From the sequence record PX974237.1: a stretch of 44,742 nt of DNA, one strand, 5' to 3'. The position numbers were made by a program, and so were the translations under genes. The DNA comes from a phage. Of this stretch, positions 345 through 42,008 are shown piece after piece. Each line of letters begins with the position of its first letter. The stretch's first letter is position 1. The notes beneath the pieces are model-generated. The model worked only from the letters and a program-made list of their open reading frames with translations, searched no databases and was not told where the DNA came from.

Positions 345-971
345 TTAGCGGCGGCGACGTTCGCGGCGCGGTGCTTCATCTTCTTCGTCGTCTTCCAGGT
401 CATTGACGCTCGCAGCGACTTTAGAACCGCCGAACGCTTTGCCTTCGCCAACGTATTTAATCGCCAGCAGGTTAACACCGAGGACTTTGTATTTCTGGCT
501 GAACCAGATTTCAACGCTTACGTTAGCGACGCAGCCGCTGTAAACCTGTTCACCTTCAATCTGTTCACCATCTACATTGAAGTCCTGTTCTACCTGAGTC
601 TCACCTTTTTTAGAGGTTACAATCAGTGGCTGTTTCTGAGCCTTCGCTTTGAAGTATAAGCCTTCCGGGAAGTCTTCAAACGGATTGTCGCGCTCGGCAA
701 TATCTTTAATCGCGCATTTGTCCATGTGCTTACCTTCGCCGTAGTTGGACTTCATCCATTTCTCGGCGGCGGCCGCACCTAACGCTTCTTCAACCACAGC
801 GTAAACAGTGTCGTATAGCGCATCGATTTGAGCATGGTCAGACGGCAGGATAATAGTCGCGCTGTACTGGCCTTTAGTGATTGAGCCATCATCGTTTTCA
901 CGGTCTTTTTCACGTTCAAATACGTTAACCCAAGCAGTGTTTACTTTACGCAGATTCAGTTTAATACCCAT
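345..971 (-). CDS. Single-stranded DNA-binding protein, T7 gp2.5-like (DUF2815-like)
   Basis: 208 aa; MGIKLNLRKVNTAWVNVFE N-terminus and acidic C-terminal tail DLEDDEEDE typical of gp2.5-type SSBs; adjacent to DUF2800-like nuclease and polymerase. Confidence 0.45.
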   Translation of the reverse strand: MGIKLNLRKVNTAWVNVFEREKDRENDDGSITKGQYSATIILPSDHAQIDALYDTVYAVVEEALGAAAAEKWMKSNYGEGKHMDKCAIKDIAERDNPFEDFPEGLYFKAKAQKQPLIVTSKKGETQVEQDFNVDGEQIEGEQVYSGCVANVSVEIWFSQKYKVLGVNLLAIKYVGEGKAFGGSKVAASVNDLEDDEEDEAPRRERRRR

Positions 972-34469: not shown

Positions 34470-34985
34470 ATGAGTCAGGAATCAGTAGAAGCTGCCTATC
34501 GCCGTAAGCTGGCCTCCAACCCCGACGGCGAGATGGACTACATCACGTTGCAAATCAGCCACCCGTTGCTGTCTAAGACGTACTATCTTGTGCGCGGGTT
34601 ACAGGAACTCACGGCAACACTGGAGACAGGCGAAATTATCACGTTCGAGCCAACCCCGATGGAGGCGTCGGGGGCGGCTAACAACAGTGATATGGACCAG
34701 ACGACTACGTTTACTTTACCGGATATTCTCAATCAACTTGACGATGAGATGGATAAAATCCCTATGAGTAACACCGAGTTGCCGAAGTTCGTCTTCCGTC
34801 GTTACGTCAGCACAGACCTGTCTTATCCGGCTGACGGTCCTGTCATGTATGAGTTGCAGGCCATCAACCAGGAGAAGGGCGAGTTCTCCGCGGATGTTGG
34901 TACACCTATGCTGAACCAGCGAAGCACTGGTATACTGATGACACCTAAAGAGATACCGTTATTACGCGGCCTGTTGACCACATGA
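34470..34985 (+). CDS. Minor tail protein, lambda gpL-like (putative)
   Basis: 171 aa; position in M-L-K-J order. Confidence 0.4.
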   Translation: MSQESVEAAYRRKLASNPDGEMDYITLQISHPLLSKTYYLVRGLQELTATLETGEIITFEPTPMEASGAANNSDMDQTTTFTLPDILNQLDDEMDKIPMSNTELPKFVFRRYVSTDLSYPADGPVMYELQAINQEKGEFSADVGTPMLNQRSTGILMTPKEIPLLRGLLTT

Positions 34986-35347
34986 ATATTAACGACTACA
35001 CGGGCATACCTTACGACTTTCGCAAACGTAATTGCTGGCATCACGTGCGCATTGTCCGCGCGGATGCCGGGTTAGAAACCCCAGCGTTCGACGTTGCAAG
35101 CCCAACGGCGATTAACGAAGCGTTTGACGAAGGGCATCGCAACACGAAGGGGCTTACAAAAATTGATAAGCCTGAAAACTTCTGTGCGGTGCTTATGGGG
35201 TATCGCCGCGGCGGTCGTATCGTGTGGCACGCTGGAGTTTACTTCGACGGGATGGTGAGTCATTGCGAGCTTGCATCCCGTCAGGTACGGCTTGACAGGC
35301 TGGTGGACCTCAGAGACACGTACACGGAGATTGAATTTTGGCGATAA
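34982..35347 (+). CDS. Tail assembly protein, NlpC/P60-like (lambda gpK-like)
   Basis: 121 aa; NCWHHV Cys-His segment and downstream His consistent with NlpC/P60 catalytic residues. Confidence 0.45.
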   Translation: MNINDYTGIPYDFRKRNCWHHVRIVRADAGLETPAFDVASPTAINEAFDEGHRNTKGLTKIDKPENFCAVLMGYRRGGRIVWHAGVYFDGMVSHCELASRQVRLDRLVDLRDTYTEIEFWR

Positions 35348-37905
35348 TCCTGCACTACACGCGAAACGCTGAAGGCGCTTTCGACCGTACAAAACACGTC
35401 GGGATGCCGATAGATTTTGTCGTTAACCATATTCCTGACGGGGTGCCTGCGCGCGTCTACCTCGGCGAGATTGGCGATGATACTGATGTTACAGACGACT
35501 TCAATGCGCTCAAAGACGAGGACGCCGTGTACCACATTATCGAGGGTGCAGGCGGTGGTATCGGCGACGCTATCGGTAGTGTATTCAGTTTCATCCTTAA
35601 GCCAATTGCCAAATTGTTCGGGCTAAACACAGCAGCTAACGCTAATTATTCCGCTACCAACAATCAGGCTACGTCGCCTAACAACAGTCTTACTGACCGC
35701 TCGAACAAGCCACGTCCTTATGAACGTTCTTATGACATCTGCGGGACAGTGCAGACTATACCCAATGACCTGATGCAGACGTATAAGGTGTTTAACGCCA
35801 CGGGGGCGCTTATTGAATATGCGTACTATGACGCCGGTCGAGGGTATCTGCATATTGAGGAAGACGGTGTAACTGAGGCAGATACCCGAATCAGCGAGAT
35901 AACTGGCTCGTCGGTGACGGTGTATTCTCCTTACACTTCGCCGAATAACACCAGCACACCACAATTGCATATCGGCGACCCTATAGACCAGAAATTGTAC
36001 GTTACATTTAAAAACGCCGATGTCGATGGCGCTGTTCTTCCCGCCCCTAATGATATCGCTATAGACGTGCAGGACTACACTGTCCAGCGGCAGGGAACAA
36101 CCGGCGTTGTAGTAGGCGATGACGCTGGTTTCGATGAGTTTTTGGCGGTCGGGGACCTGGCATACTTCGATAACGTATATGCAGATACAACCCCAGGGTC
36201 TTTGGGTAATGAGGTTAACCTGGACGGGAGGTACACGGTTCTTTCTGTTAGTGAAACGACCCTTATTGTGGACGTCAGTACAAATCAATCAATATGGAAC
36301 CAGCTAGGAACATCTGTATGGTTTATAGGTGAAGAGGGCAACCATCTTATAGGCCCGGCGGATACTTACGCGGCTTCCCTCTCTGAATGGGCGTACATCA
36401 CCCGCGGAACCGTCGACCGTGTTGTAGCCAATGTCGCCGCCAGCAACGGCATGTATAAATATAACGGCGATTATAACCGTGCCTCCGTTACGGTGGAACT
36501 GCAATACCAGATGGTGGACGAATTGAAACAGCCCGTTGGTGGCATATTCACCGTGCAAGGCACTGTTACAGGGAGAAACACCGATTACACTGGTATTACC
36601 CTATACGGAAGCTTGCCTACCGCTTCCAGATTACGCGCCCGTATGCGCCGTGTTTCCGATACTGATAAAGATTTTGAGGGTACTGTTAGCGACGAGGTTA
36701 CTTTCACTAACCTGTACGGACAGTCTCTGGACACAACACCGCACTACGGCAACCGCACTACGGTGCACTGTGCCCGTAAACAAACCCCACGTGCAGCCGA
36801 GGTGTCAGAACCGGAACTGCGCATGATTGCTACCGAGATGTGCTACAAATACTTAGGTAACTGCGTATTCGATACGGTAATGACACCGAACACTCAGGCC
36901 GTGCAGTCGCTAATCAGGCTGGCGCGTGACCCTGTGGTGGGTAATCTGGAACTGACAACGGCAAATATGGACAAGTTACTTGCCGTGCAGGAAGAAATTG
37001 AGTCGTATTTTGACAGTGAATTAGCCGGGCAGTTCTGCTACACATTCGACGACTACGACACAACCATGCAAGACATCGTTCAGACCATCGCGGAAGCCGT
37101 GTTTTGTACGGCATACCGTAAAGGTGCTGATATTATGCTGCGATTCGACCGTCCTGTTGCGGGGCCTGAGATGGTTTTCACCCACCGCAGCAAAACGACC
37201 GGTACGGAGAAATGGACGCGCACGTTCAACGATTCGACAACCTACGATAGCCTATCGTTCTCGTACATTGACCCGGATACAAACGTACAGGAGACGATTT
37301 ATATCCCGGAAGAACTCGGCGCGAACACCGAGGAGTACGAATCGAAGGGTGTACGTAACTATCAGCAAGCGTACTGGCTGGCGTGGCGTCGCTACCAGCG
37401 CAACACGTTAAGTAAAGTTGTCGTAGAGTTCGAAGCTACCGAAGAAGGCGCTCTCGCTACTCCCGGCGGCGTAATCAGTGTGGTTAAAGGCTCGCGTATC
37501 GCGCCGCAGGATGGTTATGTTGTTGCCGTCAATGGCCTTACGCTGACGCTGTCTCAGCCTGTTACGTTTACTCCTGGTGATGACCATTCCATCATTCTTA
37601 AGAAGCGCGACGGCTCTGTGCAGAGTATTTCTGTTATCAAAGGAAGCCACGACCGCGAAGTGATTATGCTCTCCGCGCCGGAGGAGGCAATCTACACGGG
37701 GAATAGTGCGCTAAAAACTGAGTTTTCATTCGGCAACGAAGCAAGGCATAATGCTCAGAAGATAGTTGTTTCTTCAATCGACCCCGGCGACGACCGCACA
37801 GTCAAGATTACGGGCTACAACTATGATGACGGATTCTATAAATACGACGGCGTCGCGCCATACGGCAGCGGTTTCTCCGACGGATTCAGCAATGGTTTTA
37901 ATTAA
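35338..37905 (+). CDS. Tail tip / central fibre protein (lambda gpJ-like host specificity protein)
   Basis: 855 aa ORF (TTG start in track) following the M/L/K-like genes. Confidence 0.5.
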   Translation: MAIILHYTRNAEGAFDRTKHVGMPIDFVVNHIPDGVPARVYLGEIGDDTDVTDDFNALKDEDAVYHIIEGAGGGIGDAIGSVFSFILKPIAKLFGLNTAANANYSATNNQATSPNNSLTDRSNKPRPYERSYDICGTVQTIPNDLMQTYKVFNATGALIEYAYYDAGRGYLHIEEDGVTEADTRISEITGSSVTVYSPYTSPNNTSTPQLHIGDPIDQKLYVTFKNADVDGAVLPAPNDIAIDVQDYTVQRQGTTGVVVGDDAGFDEFLAVGDLAYFDNVYADTTPGSLGNEVNLDGRYTVLSVSETTLIVDVSTNQSIWNQLGTSVWFIGEEGNHLIGPADTYAASLSEWAYITRGTVDRVVANVAASNGMYKYNGDYNRASVTVELQYQMVDELKQPVGGIFTVQGTVTGRNTDYTGITLYGSLPTASRLRARMRRVSDTDKDFEGTVSDEVTFTNLYGQSLDTTPHYGNRTTVHCARKQTPRAAEVSEPELRMIATEMCYKYLGNCVFDTVMTPNTQAVQSLIRLARDPVVGNLELTTANMDKLLAVQEEIESYFDSELAGQFCYTFDDYDTTMQDIVQTIAEAVFCTAYRKGADIMLRFDRPVAGPEMVFTHRSKTTGTEKWTRTFNDSTTYDSLSFSYIDPDTNVQETIYIPEELGANTEEYESKGVRNYQQAYWLAWRRYQRNTLSKVVVEFEATEEGALATPGGVISVVKGSRIAPQDGYVVAVNGLTLTLSQPVTFTPGDDHSIILKKRDGSVQSISVIKGSHDREVIMLSAPEEAIYTGNSALKTEFSFGNEARHNAQKIVVSSIDPGDDRTVKITGYNYDDGFYKYDGVAPYGSGFSDGFSNGFN

Positions 37906-37917
37906 AGAGGACTCTAT

Positions 37918-39903
37918 ATGTCAAGCGGATGCGGTGACGTTTTAAGCCTGGCGGATTTACAAACCGCCAAGAAACACCAAATTTTTGAAGCCGAGGTTAT
38001 CACCGGTAAATCCGGCGGGGTTGCTGGTGGCGCCGATATTGATTACGCGACCAACCCTGTTACCGGGCAGACCCAGAAGACGCTCCCTGCCGTGTTGCGT
38101 GACGCTGGTTTTTCTCCTGTATCGTGGGACTTTTCCACCGGCGGTACGTTAACCGCTAATGACCGCGACAAAGTGGTGTATGACCCTGTACGCAAGACGT
38201 GGTACTCGTATACCGGGACTCTGCCGGTTGTTGTCCCCGCATCGTTTAACCCGGTTGGTAACGCTAACTGGAAGCCGCAGACTGACCCGGATTTGCGTAA
38301 TGATTTGGCGTCAAGTACCGCCGGTTTAGGGGCTTCACTGGTGTCTTTTTCCAACGGTAACACCGTTGAAACATTATCTGACGCGGAAGGTGCCAAGAAC
38401 ATAGGCAGTGGCGAAAGGAGTTTGCTTGCACGTAACAATGATATTAAGCATTCTGGCGACTTTTCTACCCTTCAAGCCGCGGTAGATGCGTCGTTAACTA
38501 AAAACGACTTAATTGTTTCTCCGGGTGAGTATACAGAAGCAATCACTCTGGGTAGTAAGCAGATAAAAGGTGTAGGTGGTGCTGCAATATTAAAACCATC
38601 GGCAAACTATGCAAATACTGTACAGGTTAATTTATCCACCCCGCACTGGCAGTTTCGACACAGCGGTGGTTTTGCCGTAGATGGTACAGGTACAACTGGG
38701 GCCGTAGGTATTAGTTTTGACCCGTCAGACCAATATTCCGGACGTCATAATTTTAGTGATTTATACATCCACAACATCAACAAGGCCATTCAGAAGCCTT
38801 CCGGGAACATCGGTAATACATGGAGAAATATTGGGGTATCTACGTGTGATTGGGGGTATTACGCGATTAGTGGCTCAGAGATGCATTGCGGGGCCGATAC
38901 CCTCTACAATATCCACTTCGACGGCATCTCCACCTATGCCGTCTACCTAAACGGCACTGTCAATAACGGCGGGATAGGCGGATGGTGGCTTAAAGACTCC
39001 ATTATTGAGGCTTCCGGAGGCGGCGGGATATACTTAAAAAGCAAATCGGGTGACTGTCCTACATCTCCATGCGGGGTATCCAATGTAGGGATGGAAGCTA
39101 TTGCAACATCATCGGCTGTTCAGGTAGACGGCGTGGCGCAAAAACCGCGAGTTCTCAAGTTGGTAGACACCGCGATATTCTTTGCTGAGTATTCTTATCT
39201 CAATAACATCGAGCTATCCAACTCCAACTTAGTAACTTATGGTTGCCGTTTTGACAACGCTGATGGTAATCAGGATATTGTAGTGGATGCACAAAGCACC
39301 ATCGTAGCCCACGACGTGTATTTAAACGGCAGCTCTGGAAAGGACGTTATTGTAGAGTCTGTCGCGTCGCAATCCGCAACGATAGCCACTACAAACTTGT
39401 CTCTACGAGGAAATTTAACAAGGGGACGAGTGTTTAATACGCCGACGGGGAATAAGTTAAAAGCTATCACATTTGACTCAGGTAGCCATAATTTTTCTGG
39501 TAGCGGTACCGTTAACGGTTCGACTGTATCTGACGGACTTCACGCCGCTACATGTACCGAATTTTCATTCCCTGGGTCCGGTTTATATGAAATGGTAGCG
39601 TCAAGAACGACACTTACATCCGGCAGATGGTACGTGTGGGGCGTCAACTCTCGCCGCCAATCAGGAACAGCAGATGTGAGTATAACGTCAGGTATTACTA
39701 TGGGTAGCGTTTATACTAAGTCTGGTGAGTGGATTAGCACATTTGGTGTGGGTAAAGCTTCCGCTAACGGTACTGTAGGTCTGTACGTCTCTACTGGGGG
39801 AGGTTCAGGTGCTGTTATCAGATTTAGTGACTTCTTCATCGCTGAGTTTACGACGCAGGCTCAGGCTTTAGCTTTCGCTAACTCCCGAATGTCGTTGGCT
39901 TAA
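37918..39903 (+). CDS. Tailspike / receptor-binding protein with beta-helix (pectate-lyase-like) domain
   Basis: 661 aa; GC-rich N-terminal ~180 aa anchor, then AT-richer region beginning DFSTLQAAVDAS... with Gly/Asn/Ser/Thr-rich repeats typical of beta-helix depolymerases. Confidence 0.6.
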   Translation: MSSGCGDVLSLADLQTAKKHQIFEAEVITGKSGGVAGGADIDYATNPVTGQTQKTLPAVLRDAGFSPVSWDFSTGGTLTANDRDKVVYDPVRKTWYSYTGTLPVVVPASFNPVGNANWKPQTDPDLRNDLASSTAGLGASLVSFSNGNTVETLSDAEGAKNIGSGERSLLARNNDIKHSGDFSTLQAAVDASLTKNDLIVSPGEYTEAITLGSKQIKGVGGAAILKPSANYANTVQVNLSTPHWQFRHSGGFAVDGTGTTGAVGISFDPSDQYSGRHNFSDLYIHNINKAIQKPSGNIGNTWRNIGVSTCDWGYYAISGSEMHCGADTLYNIHFDGISTYAVYLNGTVNNGGIGGWWLKDSIIEASGGGGIYLKSKSGDCPTSPCGVSNVGMEAIATSSAVQVDGVAQKPRVLKLVDTAIFFAEYSYLNNIELSNSNLVTYGCRFDNADGNQDIVVDAQSTIVAHDVYLNGSSGKDVIVESVASQSATIATTNLSLRGNLTRGRVFNTPTGNKLKAITFDSGSHNFSGSGTVNGSTVSDGLHAATCTEFSFPGSGLYEMVASRTTLTSGRWYVWGVNSRRQSGTADVSITSGITMGSVYTKSGEWISTFGVGKASANGTVGLYVSTGGGSGAVIRFSDFFIAEFTTQAQALAFANSRMSLA

Positions 39904-39907
39904 AACT

Positions 39908-39930
39908 AAGGCCCCAAACGGGGCCTTTTC
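39908..39930. terminator. Bidirectional rho-independent terminator
   Basis: aaggcccc-aaac-ggggcctt followed by TTTTCTCT. Confidence 0.7.
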
Positions 39931-39931
39931 T

Positions 39932-40069
39932 CTACTCTTCTGATAACTTCTCCAGTACAAACGCCAGTTGCGCATTAGCGGCGTCTCTTTGCTGACGTAG
40001 CCGCAGAACCTCTTCTTCGAGTTCCTTGATACGTTTTTGCAATGCTGGAATCGGGGCTATGATGTTCAT
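39932..40069 (-). CDS. Small coiled-coil protein (45 aa), last gene of the leftward replication operon
   Basis: ATG overlapping stop of the Toprim gene (ATGA); MNIIAPIPALQKRIKELEEEVLRLRQQRD... Confidence 0.3.
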   Translation of the reverse strand: MNIIAPIPALQKRIKELEEEVLRLRQQRDAANAQLAFVLEKLSEE

Positions 40070-40581
40070 CTGGTAAATTTCCTCGCAAGATACGTTATTT
40101 CTTCTTCACAAAGTTCATCGAGGTCGTTAGATACAAATCCTCTGGTGAATGTTTTGCTGAACTTTAAGCCCGCTTTATCACTGTCACCGGCGCACACCCA
40201 TTCATACGGCAAAAGTGACATTTGCTGCCGTAAGTCAGCTGGTATGTTCGACCCCAATGCGCTAACTGCATTAAACCCGCAATTCATCAAAGCAACAGCT
40301 TTAAATATGCTTTCGGTAACAAATACCACCCCGCTACTTGGCAAATACTCAAGTCCCCATAAACACGGCCTTGTTGTTCGGGTAAAGTACCGCGCGTCTT
40401 TAGGGTTTTTACAGTTCTTTTCAGCATGCGGCTTGTAATGCTGGTATCCTCGTAGCCTGCCGTCAAAACCCCACAAGTAGAATGTAGCAACGCCAGGGGC
40501 TAAGACTACCTGGAGACGGTCTGCGTCAAAACCTCGTGACAGCAGATGCGCCTTAAGTAGAAACTCTTCGAAATCCATCAT
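40066..40581 (-). CDS. Toprim-domain protein (DnaG-like primase core, putative)
   Basis: 171 aa; VVFVTESIFKAVALMNCGFNAVSALGSN...VCAGDSDKAG fits the Toprim pattern. Confidence 0.5.
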   Translation of the reverse strand: MMDFEEFLLKAHLLSRGFDADRLQVVLAPGVATFYLWGFDGRLRGYQHYKPHAEKNCKNPKDARYFTRTTRPCLWGLEYLPSSGVVFVTESIFKAVALMNCGFNAVSALGSNIPADLRQQMSLLPYEWVCAGDSDKAGLKFSKTFTRGFVSNDLDELCEEEITYLARKFTR

Positions 40582-42008
40582 TTCTTACTCCTACGTTTCA
40601 TATAATTAAGTAGTTCATCCTGTACAGACCTTTTCTCGTCTGTACGAGCGGCGACAACTTCATCAAGAGTATCTCGGGCTATTATTTGATAAATGAATAC
40701 AGACCGTTTGTATCCGGATTGCATCTGCCTTACTGGGCCTATACGCTCGATAACCTGCAGATAATGCTCCAGGTTCCACCCCTGACTCATAAAAGCCATG
40801 TGATGCCCGCCGTGTTGTAGCGACAGCCCGTGGCCCGCGGATGCCGGGTGTATCAGGAGCATAGGTATATCCCCCCGGTTCCACGCTTCCATCTGCTTAT
40901 TACCCTTAGCACCTTTTGCAAACGCCTGCGCCTGCGGGAATCGCTTAAGGATGCGCTCCAGTTCGTGCTTAAACTGATAGGCGACTAGCAACGGCGCGCC
41001 CTGTAACTCCTCAACAATTGACTCAAGCGCATCCAGTTTCGTGTCGTGCACTTTCTCCCAGTCTTTCGTTGCTTCGCCATCCGGCCCTGACACATACACG
41101 GCACCAGATGCAATCTGCAAGCACTTTGAGGTCTTCGCCGCAGCGTTAGCCGCTTCAACTTCCCCGCTCTCCAGTTCTGCGAATAACTTCTCCTCCATAT
41201 CTATGTACGCCTGACGCGCTTTCTTCGGCAGGTCTATTTCCACCGGTACGATAACAGGCGCTTCACAACCAAACCACTCGGCAGGGTCTATGGTCAGGCT
41301 GATGTCTTTCATCTTCTGATGAATCTCATTATCCGCACCCGGTCGTGCATGATACTCGCGGGCCATAGCCGATTTACCTTTCTGTACCGAGTTAAACCAG
41401 CGGTCGGTGAATGCTGTGTACGATGAACCGAGTCGCTCGCCAGCGTCGATAAACCAGTTCTGCCCCCACAAGTCCTTGAGGCCGTTTGGTGACGGCGTGC
41501 CAGTCAGGTTAATGAAACGCTTAACCTTTCCGAACGCAACCTTGCTGAGCGCCTTTGCCCGCTTGCTACCACCCGAACGGCTGCGGAACGATTTAAGCTT
41601 CGTGCTTTCATCGGCAACGATAACCGTAAAAGGCCAGTCGTCTTTGCCGTAGTAGTCAATTAGCCACTCGATAACTTCGTAGTTAGTGCACACCACGTTA
41701 GCATCTGACTCCAGCGCTGCGATGCGGCGCTTCTCCGAACCAGTTGCATCTACGACACGCAGACAAGGGAATTGCCATTTCTCTTGTTCAGCGGGCCACG
41801 TACCGGACGCAACACGTAACGGGGCAAGGATTAACACGCGGTCCTCTTCCGTAAGCTGCCCGTTGCGGAACAGGCGGTTGAGCACCCACATAGTGGAGGA
41901 GGTTTTACCTCCCCCCATTCCGCACCAGATATTACAGCGCGGGTGTTGCAGCATGAACGAAGTCATGAGCTTCTGGTACTCTCGACGGATAAATTTAGAC
42001 ATGTTCAA
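40578..42008 (-). CDS. SNF2-family helicase / ATPase
   Basis: 476 aa; Walker A GMGGGKT, DEST box, LTGTPSPN motif, C-terminal helicase motifs. Confidence 0.8.
   Translation of the reverse strand: MNMSKFIRREYQKLMTSFMLQHPRCNIWCGMGGGKTSSTMWVLNRLFRNGQLTEEDRVLILAPLRVASGTWPAEQEKWQFPCLRVVDATGSEKRRIAALESDANVVCTNYEVIEWLIDYYGKDDWPFTVIVADESTKLKSFRSRSGGSKRAKALSKVAFGKVKRFINLTGTPSPNGLKDLWGQNWFIDAGERLGSSYTAFTDRWFNSVQKGKSAMAREYHARPGADNEIHQKMKDISLTIDPAEWFGCEAPVIVPVEIDLPKKARQAYIDMEEKLFAELESGEVEAANAAAKTSKCLQIASGAVYVSGPDGEATKDWEKVHDTKLDALESIVEELQGAPLLVAYQFKHELERILKRFPQAQAFAKGAKGNKQMEAWNRGDIPMLLIHPASAGHGLSLQHGGHHMAFMSQGWNLEHYLQVIERIGPVRQMQSGYKRSVFIYQIIARDTLDEVVAARTDEKRSVQDELLNYMKRRSKK

Follow-up and report, generated by a model that had tools for sequence, protein, structure and literature searches.

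The window, a stretch of 44,742 nucleotides (PX974237.1), carries the single tailspike (receptor-binding protein) of an E. coli Kagunavirus (Guernseyvirinae) siphophage, and this tailspike is very likely a mosaic with an exchanged receptor-binding domain (RBD). The open reading frame runs from an ATG at 37918 to 39903 on the plus strand, exactly as originally predicted, and encodes 661 aa. It matches PHROG 27367 (tail fiber protein) over its full length (1197 bits, aa 1–661 vs. profile positions 78–736) and shows 97.9% nucleotide identity to the annotated tailspike gene of the Kagunavirus Escherichia phage vB_EcoS-22664BS2 (22664BS2), with a backbone that is 95% identical to that of 22664BS2 across 93% of 19.7 kb. 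The ATG lies 12 nt beyond the end of the gene for an 855-aa protein, which matches PHROG 469 ('tail protein', 824 bits), PHROG 31307 and, weakly, Pfam Phage-tail_3 (18.8 bits). A tailspike locus downstream of the J-like gene has been described for Kagunaviruses (PMC11990801); here, too, the gene is located directly 3' of the J-like gene on a Kagunavirus backbone, and it is the final gene of the plus-strand structural block (Table 1). The J-like protein is the presumed docking partner of the tailspike, and the anchor would dock the spike to the tail tip beside it.

Table 1. Coordinates of the tailspike gene, its modules and its flanking elements in the window
Feature	Position	Strand	Basis or remark
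J-like central tail fibre/tail tip protein, 855 aa	35338..37905	+	PHROG 469, PHROG 31307
Shine-Dalgarno AGAGGA	37906..37911	+	Read from the sequence; 6 nt 5' of the tailspike ATG
Tailspike gene, 661 codons + TAA	37918..39903	+	ORF list, PHROG 27367, nucleotide identity to 22664BS2
Genus-specific N-terminal attachment segment, aa 1–50	37918..38067	+	Conserved in Kagunavirus-type spikes only
Small β-domain related to Tail_spike_N (PF18668), aa 52–122	38071..38283	+	Second half of the anchor
Junction motif DPDLRNDL, aa 123–130	38284..38307	+	Recombination crossover at 38291–38306
Helical neck/linker, low confidence, aa 131–184	38308..38469	+	Holds the remaining 5' cassette boundaries; pLDDT 54–71
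Right-handed parallel β-helix, aa 185 to ~540	38470..39537	+	Receptor-binding and putative catalytic domain; C-terminal limit approximate
Codon GGG, Gly391	39088..39090	+	Private; Trp in 41/43 homologues; two residues before the invariant Glu393
C-terminal β-sandwich (CBM-like), aa ~541–661	39538..39900	+	AF2, Foldseek; N-terminal limit approximate
Intrinsic terminator hairpin, 8-bp stem, AAAC loop, then UUUUCUCU	39908..39927	+	RNA fold; 3' edge of the exchangeable cassette

In the AF2 monomer model, aa 1–41 have a pLDDT below 50 and contain one helix (aa 11–24), followed by strands at aa 43–121 (pLDDT 54–90). PF18668 is found at aa 77–112 with 20.7 bits, which is under the gathering cut-off of 25 bits and leaves the domain outside formal Pfam membership. 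The relationship is still supported by homologues carrying PF18668 and by a phmmer search, in which the domain matches N-terminal parts of solved fibres and spikes (9lna_A, E 5.7e-7; 9occ_G, E 1.5e-4). Within the junction motif, the pLDDT falls below 50 at aa 126–128. The RBD is predicted to adopt the right-handed parallel β-helix characteristic of tailspike depolymerases, and in fold comparisons it comes closest to tailspikes with enzymatic activity and to enzymes that act on polysaccharides. The C-terminal β-sandwich consists of long antiparallel strands (aa 546–644, pLDDT 91–98) and a terminal helix (aa 647–656), and yields local Foldseek matches to CBM22, CBM4, CBM6, CBM16 and a porphyran-binding CBM (E 8.5e-4 to 5e-3). 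The spike would trimerise, although the AF2 prediction is that of a monomer.

At the sequence level the RBD stands apart from characterised families. Pfam shows no match for aa 181–661 at E values up to 0.1, including PF12708 (Pectate_lyase_3) and PF13229 (Beta_helix). A PDB sequence search with the full-length protein returned chance TetR matches alone (E ~0.8), and a PDB profile search built on 43 homologues matched solved structures via N-terminal anchor regions only, with just a pectinesterase (E 0.17) for the RBD. Solved β-helix tailspikes, i.e., CBA120 TSP2 (5w6p/6w4q), Sf6 (2vbk), HK620 (2vji) and the K5A lyase (2x3h), are 9–16% identical to the window protein. The predicted enrichment of Gly, Asn, Ser and Thr in the C-terminal part is real, at 39.5% vs. 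31.5% in aa 1–130 and 29.8% in the adjacent 855-aa J-like protein, and the LQAAVDAS motif is present at aa 185–192 (38470–38493). The claimed sequence repeats did not hold up, as Tandem Repeats Finder gives two trivial matches only; in the structural model, the repeats of the RBD are rungs of the predicted β-helix.

The two halves of the tailspike have incongruent relatives, which supports the proposal of an anchor joined to an exchanged domain. The anchor (aa 1–130) is 91–98% identical to that of three Kagunavirus spikes, one of which carries an unrelated RBD, and it corresponds to the genus-conserved N-terminal anchor of Kagunavirus tailspikes. The RBD (aa 157–661) shows 90% identity to gp17 of LM33_P1 (Kayfunavirus) and to the spike of a Skatevirus-like siphophage, which share 12% of the anchor, and 64% identity to a P22-like prophage spike; the anchor shared with the Kayfunavirus, Skatevirus-like and P22-like partner proteins amounts to no more than 14%. 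Under the RBD subtype criterion of Pas et al. 2023 (HGT; a minimum of 30% identity across 60% or more of the RBD), LM33_P1 gp17 belongs to the same subtype, its 90% identity extending over all 505 RBD residues. The cassette is found at 85–91% nucleotide identity on T7-like Kayfunaviruses and the Skatevirus-like siphophage, and in more distant versions on P22-like prophages, T1-like siphophages and ES17-type podophages. Other backbones are a Skatevirus-like contig, a T1-like contig and a P22-like prophage in E. coli PSJ-07. A megablast search of complete E. coli genomes with the RBD gave no match, and a sensitive blastn search recovered only two distant prophage copies (65–66%).

The same pattern emerges from domain architectures. 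The RBD follows PF09008 (P22 head-binding), PF18668 together with PF03906 (T7 fibre), or PF18668 alone in its homologues, while the same anchor precedes PF12708, PF13472, PF13229, PF27114, PF13884 or PF03009. Among PHROGs, the first 180 aa match 15 different tailspike families and the last 481 aa match PHROG 27367 alone. Nucleotide-level matches to the gene occur in 125 phage records, 13 of which are full length at 93–98%; among the matches listed, 12 records (H14–H25) cover only nt 482–1979 and 14 cover only about the first 377–404 nt. Full-length homology to one related tailspike, named beforehand as grounds for rejecting the prediction, thus exists in formal terms, yet mosaicism stands because these relatives carry the same chimera. 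This includes the 22664BS2 tailspike (QZI78537.1; MZ234010), which has the same length (661 aa) and locus and 98.5% amino acid identity. The anchor (aa 1–130) tracks the phylogeny of the phage backbone, and the cassette that starts at 38307 and ends with the stop codon (neck, β-helix and β-sandwich) tracks another. The exchange of RBDs is a known principle in Kaguna- and Kayfunaviruses (PMC10408124; PMC11990801), and the chimeric tailspike is itself already known.

The module boundary is located at 38291–38306, about 150 nt upstream of the originally claimed shift at ~38450. Differences from the 22664BS2 anchor lie nearly all in 38085–38290, where the window matches fFiEco02 instead: this segment holds 27 differences from 22664BS2, with 0 in 38291–38961. 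The fFiEco02 tailspike, a K1-type spike with Peptidase_S74, occupies the same locus, with the J-like protein on one side and the convergent replication block on the other, and has a 98% identical anchor, but homology breaks at aa 130. Just 2 differences separate it from the window in 38143–38306; homology stops at 38306, divergence is total from 38307, and the RBDs are unrelated (18% of the window RBD aligned as identical). These alignments place the latest crossover visible in the genome within the 16 nt 38291–38306, which encode DLRNDL. The alignment to the P22-like prophage spike begins at aa 123 ('DPD-LRNDLA'), and nucleotide homology starts at 38329 for Skatevirus-like L006 and at 38386 for LM33_P1. 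LM33_P1 gp17 (SBT28132.1/YP_009324518.1), from a podovirus, differs by its T7-type N-terminus (PF03906) and shorter linker, and is 86.4% identical at the nucleotide level over 38386–39905, with the same stop-codon boundary. On the 3' side, the alignments to LM33_P1 and L006 run as far as 39905 and fFiEco02 becomes homologous again from 39903, so that the 3' boundary of the cassette is the stop codon, just 5' of the terminator. This hairpin was missed by a consensus scan and found by direct folding (-15.5 kcal/mol, z -4.4, 0 of 200 shuffles equally stable). Pas et al. proposed a 44-nt junction motif shared across genera, which was rejected as the cause of the present exchange; the corresponding GTLP region is not conserved in the window, and its identity to LM33_P1 of just 42% means that the motif does not explain the event.

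Base composition agrees in direction with a GC-rich start followed by an AT-richer remainder, as originally predicted (0.526 in the first 180 codons vs. 0.470 in the rest; window 0.503), but the difference is modest and the change point is not significant alone. The best intragenic change point, at 38333, is equalled by 50 of 500 codon shuffles and was discarded as stand-alone evidence of mosaicism. The 1446-nt stretch at GC 0.470 falls on the 10th percentile of the window, and GC is back up to ~0.50 at 38800 to 39200. With the boundary set by homology at aa 156/157, independently of composition, GC3 is 0.558 on the anchor side and 0.441 in the RBD (two-proportion estimate, z ~2.6), compared with a mean of 0.541 (sd 0.068) for window genes of at least 150 aa. 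Across the 180-codon split, GC1 changes from 0.539 to 0.473, GC2 from 0.500 to 0.494 and GC3 from 0.539 to 0.442; since most of the drop occurs at third positions, it is not merely an effect of amino acid content. The compositional shift is real and modest. Across carriers whose backbones have a GC of 0.46–0.51, the RBD stays at 0.464–0.470.

The 13 full-length records and the non-significant change point would suit vertical descent of the whole gene, with a faster-evolving C-terminal part of drifted composition. This reading retains next to no probability, as it is refuted by the incongruent identity matrix. Relative to phages of other families, the C-terminal part is the slower-diverging one, with 85–91% nucleotide identity to podophages and a Skatevirus-like phage that do not share the anchor, and in Kagunaviruses whose anchor is 98% identical the RBD shows no detectable homology. 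Between the window and 22664BS2, the anchor differs by 7.2% of nucleotides and the RBD by 0.86%. The O25b O-antigen is the likely target of the RBD, because the strains on which its carriers were isolated are O25b-positive. The carriers are 22664BS2, with the O25b-positive host DSM22664, and three Kayfunaviruses; the four phages, from two families, lysed 41–44% of the same 79-strain panel (PMC8614997), which gives indirect support to the claim that the domain determines host range. In ST131-type E. coli, the β-helix would bind the O25b O-antigen, and host range would be set by the RBD cassette carried on the anchor. Evidence against O25b comes from vB_EcoP_LNA5, which has the same RBD and K-12 MG1655 as its recorded host. 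K-12 MG1655 is devoid of O-antigen. A capsule (K antigen) or another surface polysaccharide frequent in ST131-type strains is an improbable target: Kagunavirus K1G/K1H and fFiEco02-type spikes do target the K1 capsule (PMC10408124; Peptidase_S74 note) and the evidence on O25b is correlative, but all four isolation hosts are O25b-positive (PMC8614997) and LM33_P1 lyses O25b strains belonging to two sequence types, ST131 and ST69 (PMC5388864). Pas et al. 2023, who examined Kagunavirus RBPs specific for O-antigens, did not cover the O25 serogroup, which has 0 mentions in their text (PMC10408124).

Beyond binding, the RBD probably cleaves the O25b O-antigen enzymatically. The β-helix would act as a glycoside hydrolase with a groove lined by D327, D360, E364, E393, E424, D446 and D457, and by cutting the O-antigen the virion would work its way down through the LPS layer until it reaches the outer membrane. 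Among 43 homologues with identities as low as 37%, seven acidic RBD positions are conserved in 42 or more, a pattern that fits a putative catalytic or binding groove under selection. We infer the label 'depolymerase' from the fold. The catalytic residues are guesses, since the RBD has no Pfam family or PDB sequence relative, and those of solved β-helix tailspikes are not transferable because they lack a sequence-level match to it. Literature searches found no experiment on the window protein or a near-identical protein, and nothing relevant on the structure or assay of an O25b tailspike. A non-enzymatic adhesin that binds a bacterial or mammalian glycan, with passage of the O-antigen by reversible binding only, is rather unlikely. 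It draws on the Gly at the conserved Trp391, near Glu393, and on the tail fibre of the podophage ES17, a 1021-aa protein of a 75-kb podovirus with a much longer N-terminal part and 64% identity over RBD aa 181–660. The domain that ES17 has in common with LM33_P1 and vB_EcoS-Golestan was noted by the ES17 authors, who demonstrated a mammalian glycan ligand, with binding to heparan sulfate only and no depolymerase activity detected (PMC7885116). The conserved acidic positions, the fold matches to active enzymes and the description of Kagunavirus spikes as enzymatic in the BASEL work (PMC11990801) argue against an adhesin. Modification of the O-antigen by the β-helix without cleavage, e.g., deacetylation, is highly improbable. 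Some tailspikes are esterases, and SGNH/GDSL domains (PF13472) are found on Kagunavirus anchors in other phages, but such esterases have an SGNH fold rather than a β-helix, and the RBD matches no SGNH or esterase family apart from the lone pectinesterase of the PDB profile search.

The value of these results is practical rather than conceptual, in that the host-range determinant of the phage is identified. The pandemic ST131 clone has O25b, the predicted target of this determinant, as its O type, and the cassette limits, from 38307 (or 38291–38306) to the stop codon at 39903, can be used for retargeting a small siphophage. RBD exchange is an ordinary, well-documented phage route to host-range change, and the window adds a further example of the published exchange among Kaguna-, Kayfuna-, Skate-like, P22-like and T1-like phages and raises no new question.

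The sole oddity of the gene is W391G. 22664BS2 has TGG at codon 391, and 0 of 11 relatives of 661 aa carry the substitution. W391G could weaken binding or activity of the window protein. It is doubtful that the substitution makes the O25b-type spike a functional variant in host range or activity, one that processes glycans differently or less well, and that the domain separately binds mammalian heparan-sulfate-type glycans like its 64% identical ES17 relative. The alternate strand residues N389, W391 and E393 are conserved, and relative to 22664BS2 the private substitutions of the window protein are S92R, A99T, N125D, D349N, W391G and L580R.

Neither the tailspike gene nor its type is new; the strong result is its mosaicism. 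A conserved anchor joined to an exchanged receptor-binding domain (RBD) was proposed in the original prediction, and this is right in substance: the identities of the anchor (aa 1-130) and the RBD (aa 157-661) are incongruent among relatives (98%/18% in fFiEco02, 12%/90% in LM33_P1). At the nucleotide level, the gene is matched by 125 phage records, 13 of them over the full length (93-98%). Among the matches listed, 12 records (H14-H25) match on the RBD side only (nt 482-1979, 86.5-90.9%) and 14 on the anchor side only (approximately the first 377-404 nt). Within PHROGs, aa 1-180 match 15 different tailspike families, and the last 481 aa match only PHROG 27367. A large protein database contains the same RBD after the P22 head-binding domain PF09008, the T7 fibre N-terminus (PF03906 and PF18668) or PF18668 alone, while the Kagunavirus anchor precedes pectate-lyase-type, SGNH esterase, endosialidase-chaperone or GDPD domains. 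The gene contexts of two RBD copies correspond to a Skatevirus-like and a T1-like backbone.

Identity with the window protein, relative to the full 130 residues of the anchor and 505 of the RBD
Relative	Anchor	RBD
Kagunavirus 22664BS2	95%	99%
Kagunavirus fFiEco03	91%	63%
Kagunavirus fFiEco02	98%	18%
Kayfunavirus LM33_P1	12%	90%
Skatevirus-like siphophage (contig L006)	12%	90%
P22-like prophage, E. coli PSJ-07	14%	64%
T1-like siphophage (contig L008)	8%	45%

Two database records carry host labels that look doubtful, which may reflect contamination or mislabelling: 'Mycolicibacterium phage J1' (H72, MZ417522.1) contains a 71%-identical copy of the RBD, and 'Acinetobacter phage vB_AbaM_AB4P2' (H108, OR544125.1) shows 88% identity to a Skatevirus-like E. 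coli/Shigella tail module.

Homology to fFiEco02 ends at 38306 and restarts at 39903. Compared with 22664BS2, 27 of the 28 anchor differences fall within 38085-38290, and 38291-38961 is free of any; compared with fFiEco02, only two differences occur in 38143-38306 and divergence is complete from 38307 on. Because of these patterns, the anchor itself is a patchwork. As judged from the alignments, the latest crossover falls inside 38291-38306, where DLRNDL is encoded, about 150 nt upstream of the boundary originally placed at about 38450. The 5' joins of other partners (Skatevirus-like, 38329; LM33_P1, 38386; P22-like, aa 123) are all located in the low-confidence neck of the structural model, and the 3' ends of all close partners lie at most 2 bases from the stop codon. 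A cross-genus DNA motif was proposed by Pas et al. (PMC10408124); it is not conserved between the tailspike gene and LM33_P1, with 42% identity over 48 nt.

The compositional contrast on which the mosaic had been proposed is genuine and reproducible, but modest and unconvincing if taken alone. GC content falls in the expected direction, from 0.526 in codons 1-180 to 0.470 in the remainder (whole window, 0.503), but the shift is weaker than implied; the maximum-likelihood change point at 38333 was equalled in 50 of 500 codon shuffles. The C-terminal part ranks at the 10th percentile among window stretches of equal length, and the fall occurs mostly at third codon positions. With the boundary taken from homology, the anchor has a GC3 of 0.558 and the RBD one of 0.441 (window genes of at least 150 aa: mean 0.541, sd 0.068). 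Close RBD copies have a GC content of 0.464-0.470 on backbones of 0.46 to 0.51, and the unrelated RBD that fFiEco02 carries on the same Kagunavirus anchor has 0.477 versus 0.531 in its anchor. The reading frame was predicted exactly, and the LQAAVDAS motif is present at aa 185-192 (38470-38493). Gly, Asn, Ser and Thr are indeed enriched in the C-terminal part (39.5% versus 31.5% in the N-terminal part). The tailspike contains no sequence repeats; what had been described as such are β-helix rungs.

Tailspike gene, flanking features and predicted domains of the protein
Feature	Position	Strand	Remarks
Tailspike ORF	37918-39903	+	661 codons, ATG start
Ribosome-binding site AGAGGA	6 nt before tailspike ATG	+	read from sequence
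Intrinsic terminator	39908-39927 (hairpin); 39908-39931 (including U tract)		8-bp GC-rich stem; starts 5 bases past TAA
Convergent replication block	3' of terminator	-	45-aa ORF, Toprim-like ORF, SNF2-type helicase, family A DNA polymerase
Disordered segment	aa 1-41		in monomer; AlphaFold2
Small β domain	aa 43-121		AlphaFold2
Helical neck	aa 122-180		weakly predicted; AlphaFold2
Right-handed β-helix	aa 185 to about 540		confidently predicted; AlphaFold2
β-sandwich with terminal helix	aa about 541-661		AlphaFold2

The AlphaFold2 model was built as a monomer from a 43-sequence alignment (mean pLDDT 85.2). N-terminal parts of the solved fibres 9lna_A and 9occ_G are relatives of the anchor's second half, which is also weakly related, under the cut-off, to Pfam Tail_spike_N; no PDB chain related by sequence to the RBD was found. 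Each of seven acidic residues is kept by 42 or all 43 of the homologues. D327, E364, E393, E424 and D457 are spaced 29-37 residues apart in a similar local motif (hydrophobic-hydrophobic-acid-small), and these five are predicted from the sequence to stack along successive rungs.

Surface glycans are required by Kagunaviruses, whose tailspikes, encoded at the same locus, are enzymatic (PMC11990801). RBDs are exchanged among Kaguna-, Kayfuna- and other genera, and serogroup tracks the RBD (PMC10408124). The same RBD type is present in the Kayfunaviruses 22664BS1, 101118UKE1 and 101136BS1, which, like 22664BS2, have O25b-positive isolation strains; 22664BS2 and these three lyse 43, 42, 41 and 44% of one 79-strain panel (PMC8614997). 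For LM33_P1, lysis extends to O25b strains of two sequence types, ST131 and ST69 (PMC5388864). On the basis of these isolation hosts and LM33_P1 lysis, the O25b O-antigen is, with moderate confidence, the likeliest putative receptor. The O25b repeat unit is not known to contain uronic acid, which would favour a hydrolase over a lyase. For the 64%-identical ES17 fibre, heparan sulfate binding is the only activity shown (PMC7885116). The Kayfunavirus vB_EcoP_LNA5 (H63, MZ311861.1), whose RBD is 90% identical, has E. coli K-12 MG1655 as recorded host; this strain lacks O-antigen, and the record conflicts with the idea that this RBD type strictly depends on O25b.

The protein differs from all close relatives at six positions (S92R, A99T, N125D, D349N, W391G, L580R). 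Position 391, Trp in 41 of 43 homologues, lies two residues before the invariant Glu393 of the β-helix, and its codon (39088-39090) is GGG instead of the TGG of 22664BS2. The close relative P0005 has Cys-Thr in place of Trp-Met. Either a functional variant or a sequencing error could account for W391G.

The gene closes the plus-strand structural block. Upstream of it, an 855-aa product matching PHROG 469 'tail protein' is encoded, and 12 nt separate the stop codon of that gene from the tailspike ATG. The strong downstream hairpin (-15.5 kcal/mol, z -4.4 by RNA folding) was not reported by a consensus terminator scan; the terminator separates the gene from the convergent 45-aa ORF (39932-40069, minus strand). 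No tRNA genes were found across the window (1-44742). The 171-aa ORF at 40066-40581 (minus strand) is Toprim-only, without the zinc-ribbon part. Its matches are PHROG 849 'DNA primase' (profile positions 149-333 out of 435) and, slightly under the cut-off at 21.2 bits, Pfam Toprim_2. The ORF is also present in 22664BS2 and is replaced by a 186-nt ORF in fFiEco02 and fFiEco03.

The 19.7 kb around the tailspike share 95% identity over 93% of their length with 22664BS2 (Kagunavirus, Guernseyvirinae), and the annotated tailspike of that phage shows identities of 97.9% (nt) and 98.5% (aa) to the one described here. Within 34918-42000, blocks of 100% identity to 22664BS2 (L002) are interspersed with blocks of 70-94%, which suggests frequent short-patch recombination among Kagunaviruses. 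Low-identity blocks include one of 85% within the J-like tail protein (36518-36717) and one of 70-78% where the Toprim ORF meets the helicase (40518-40917).
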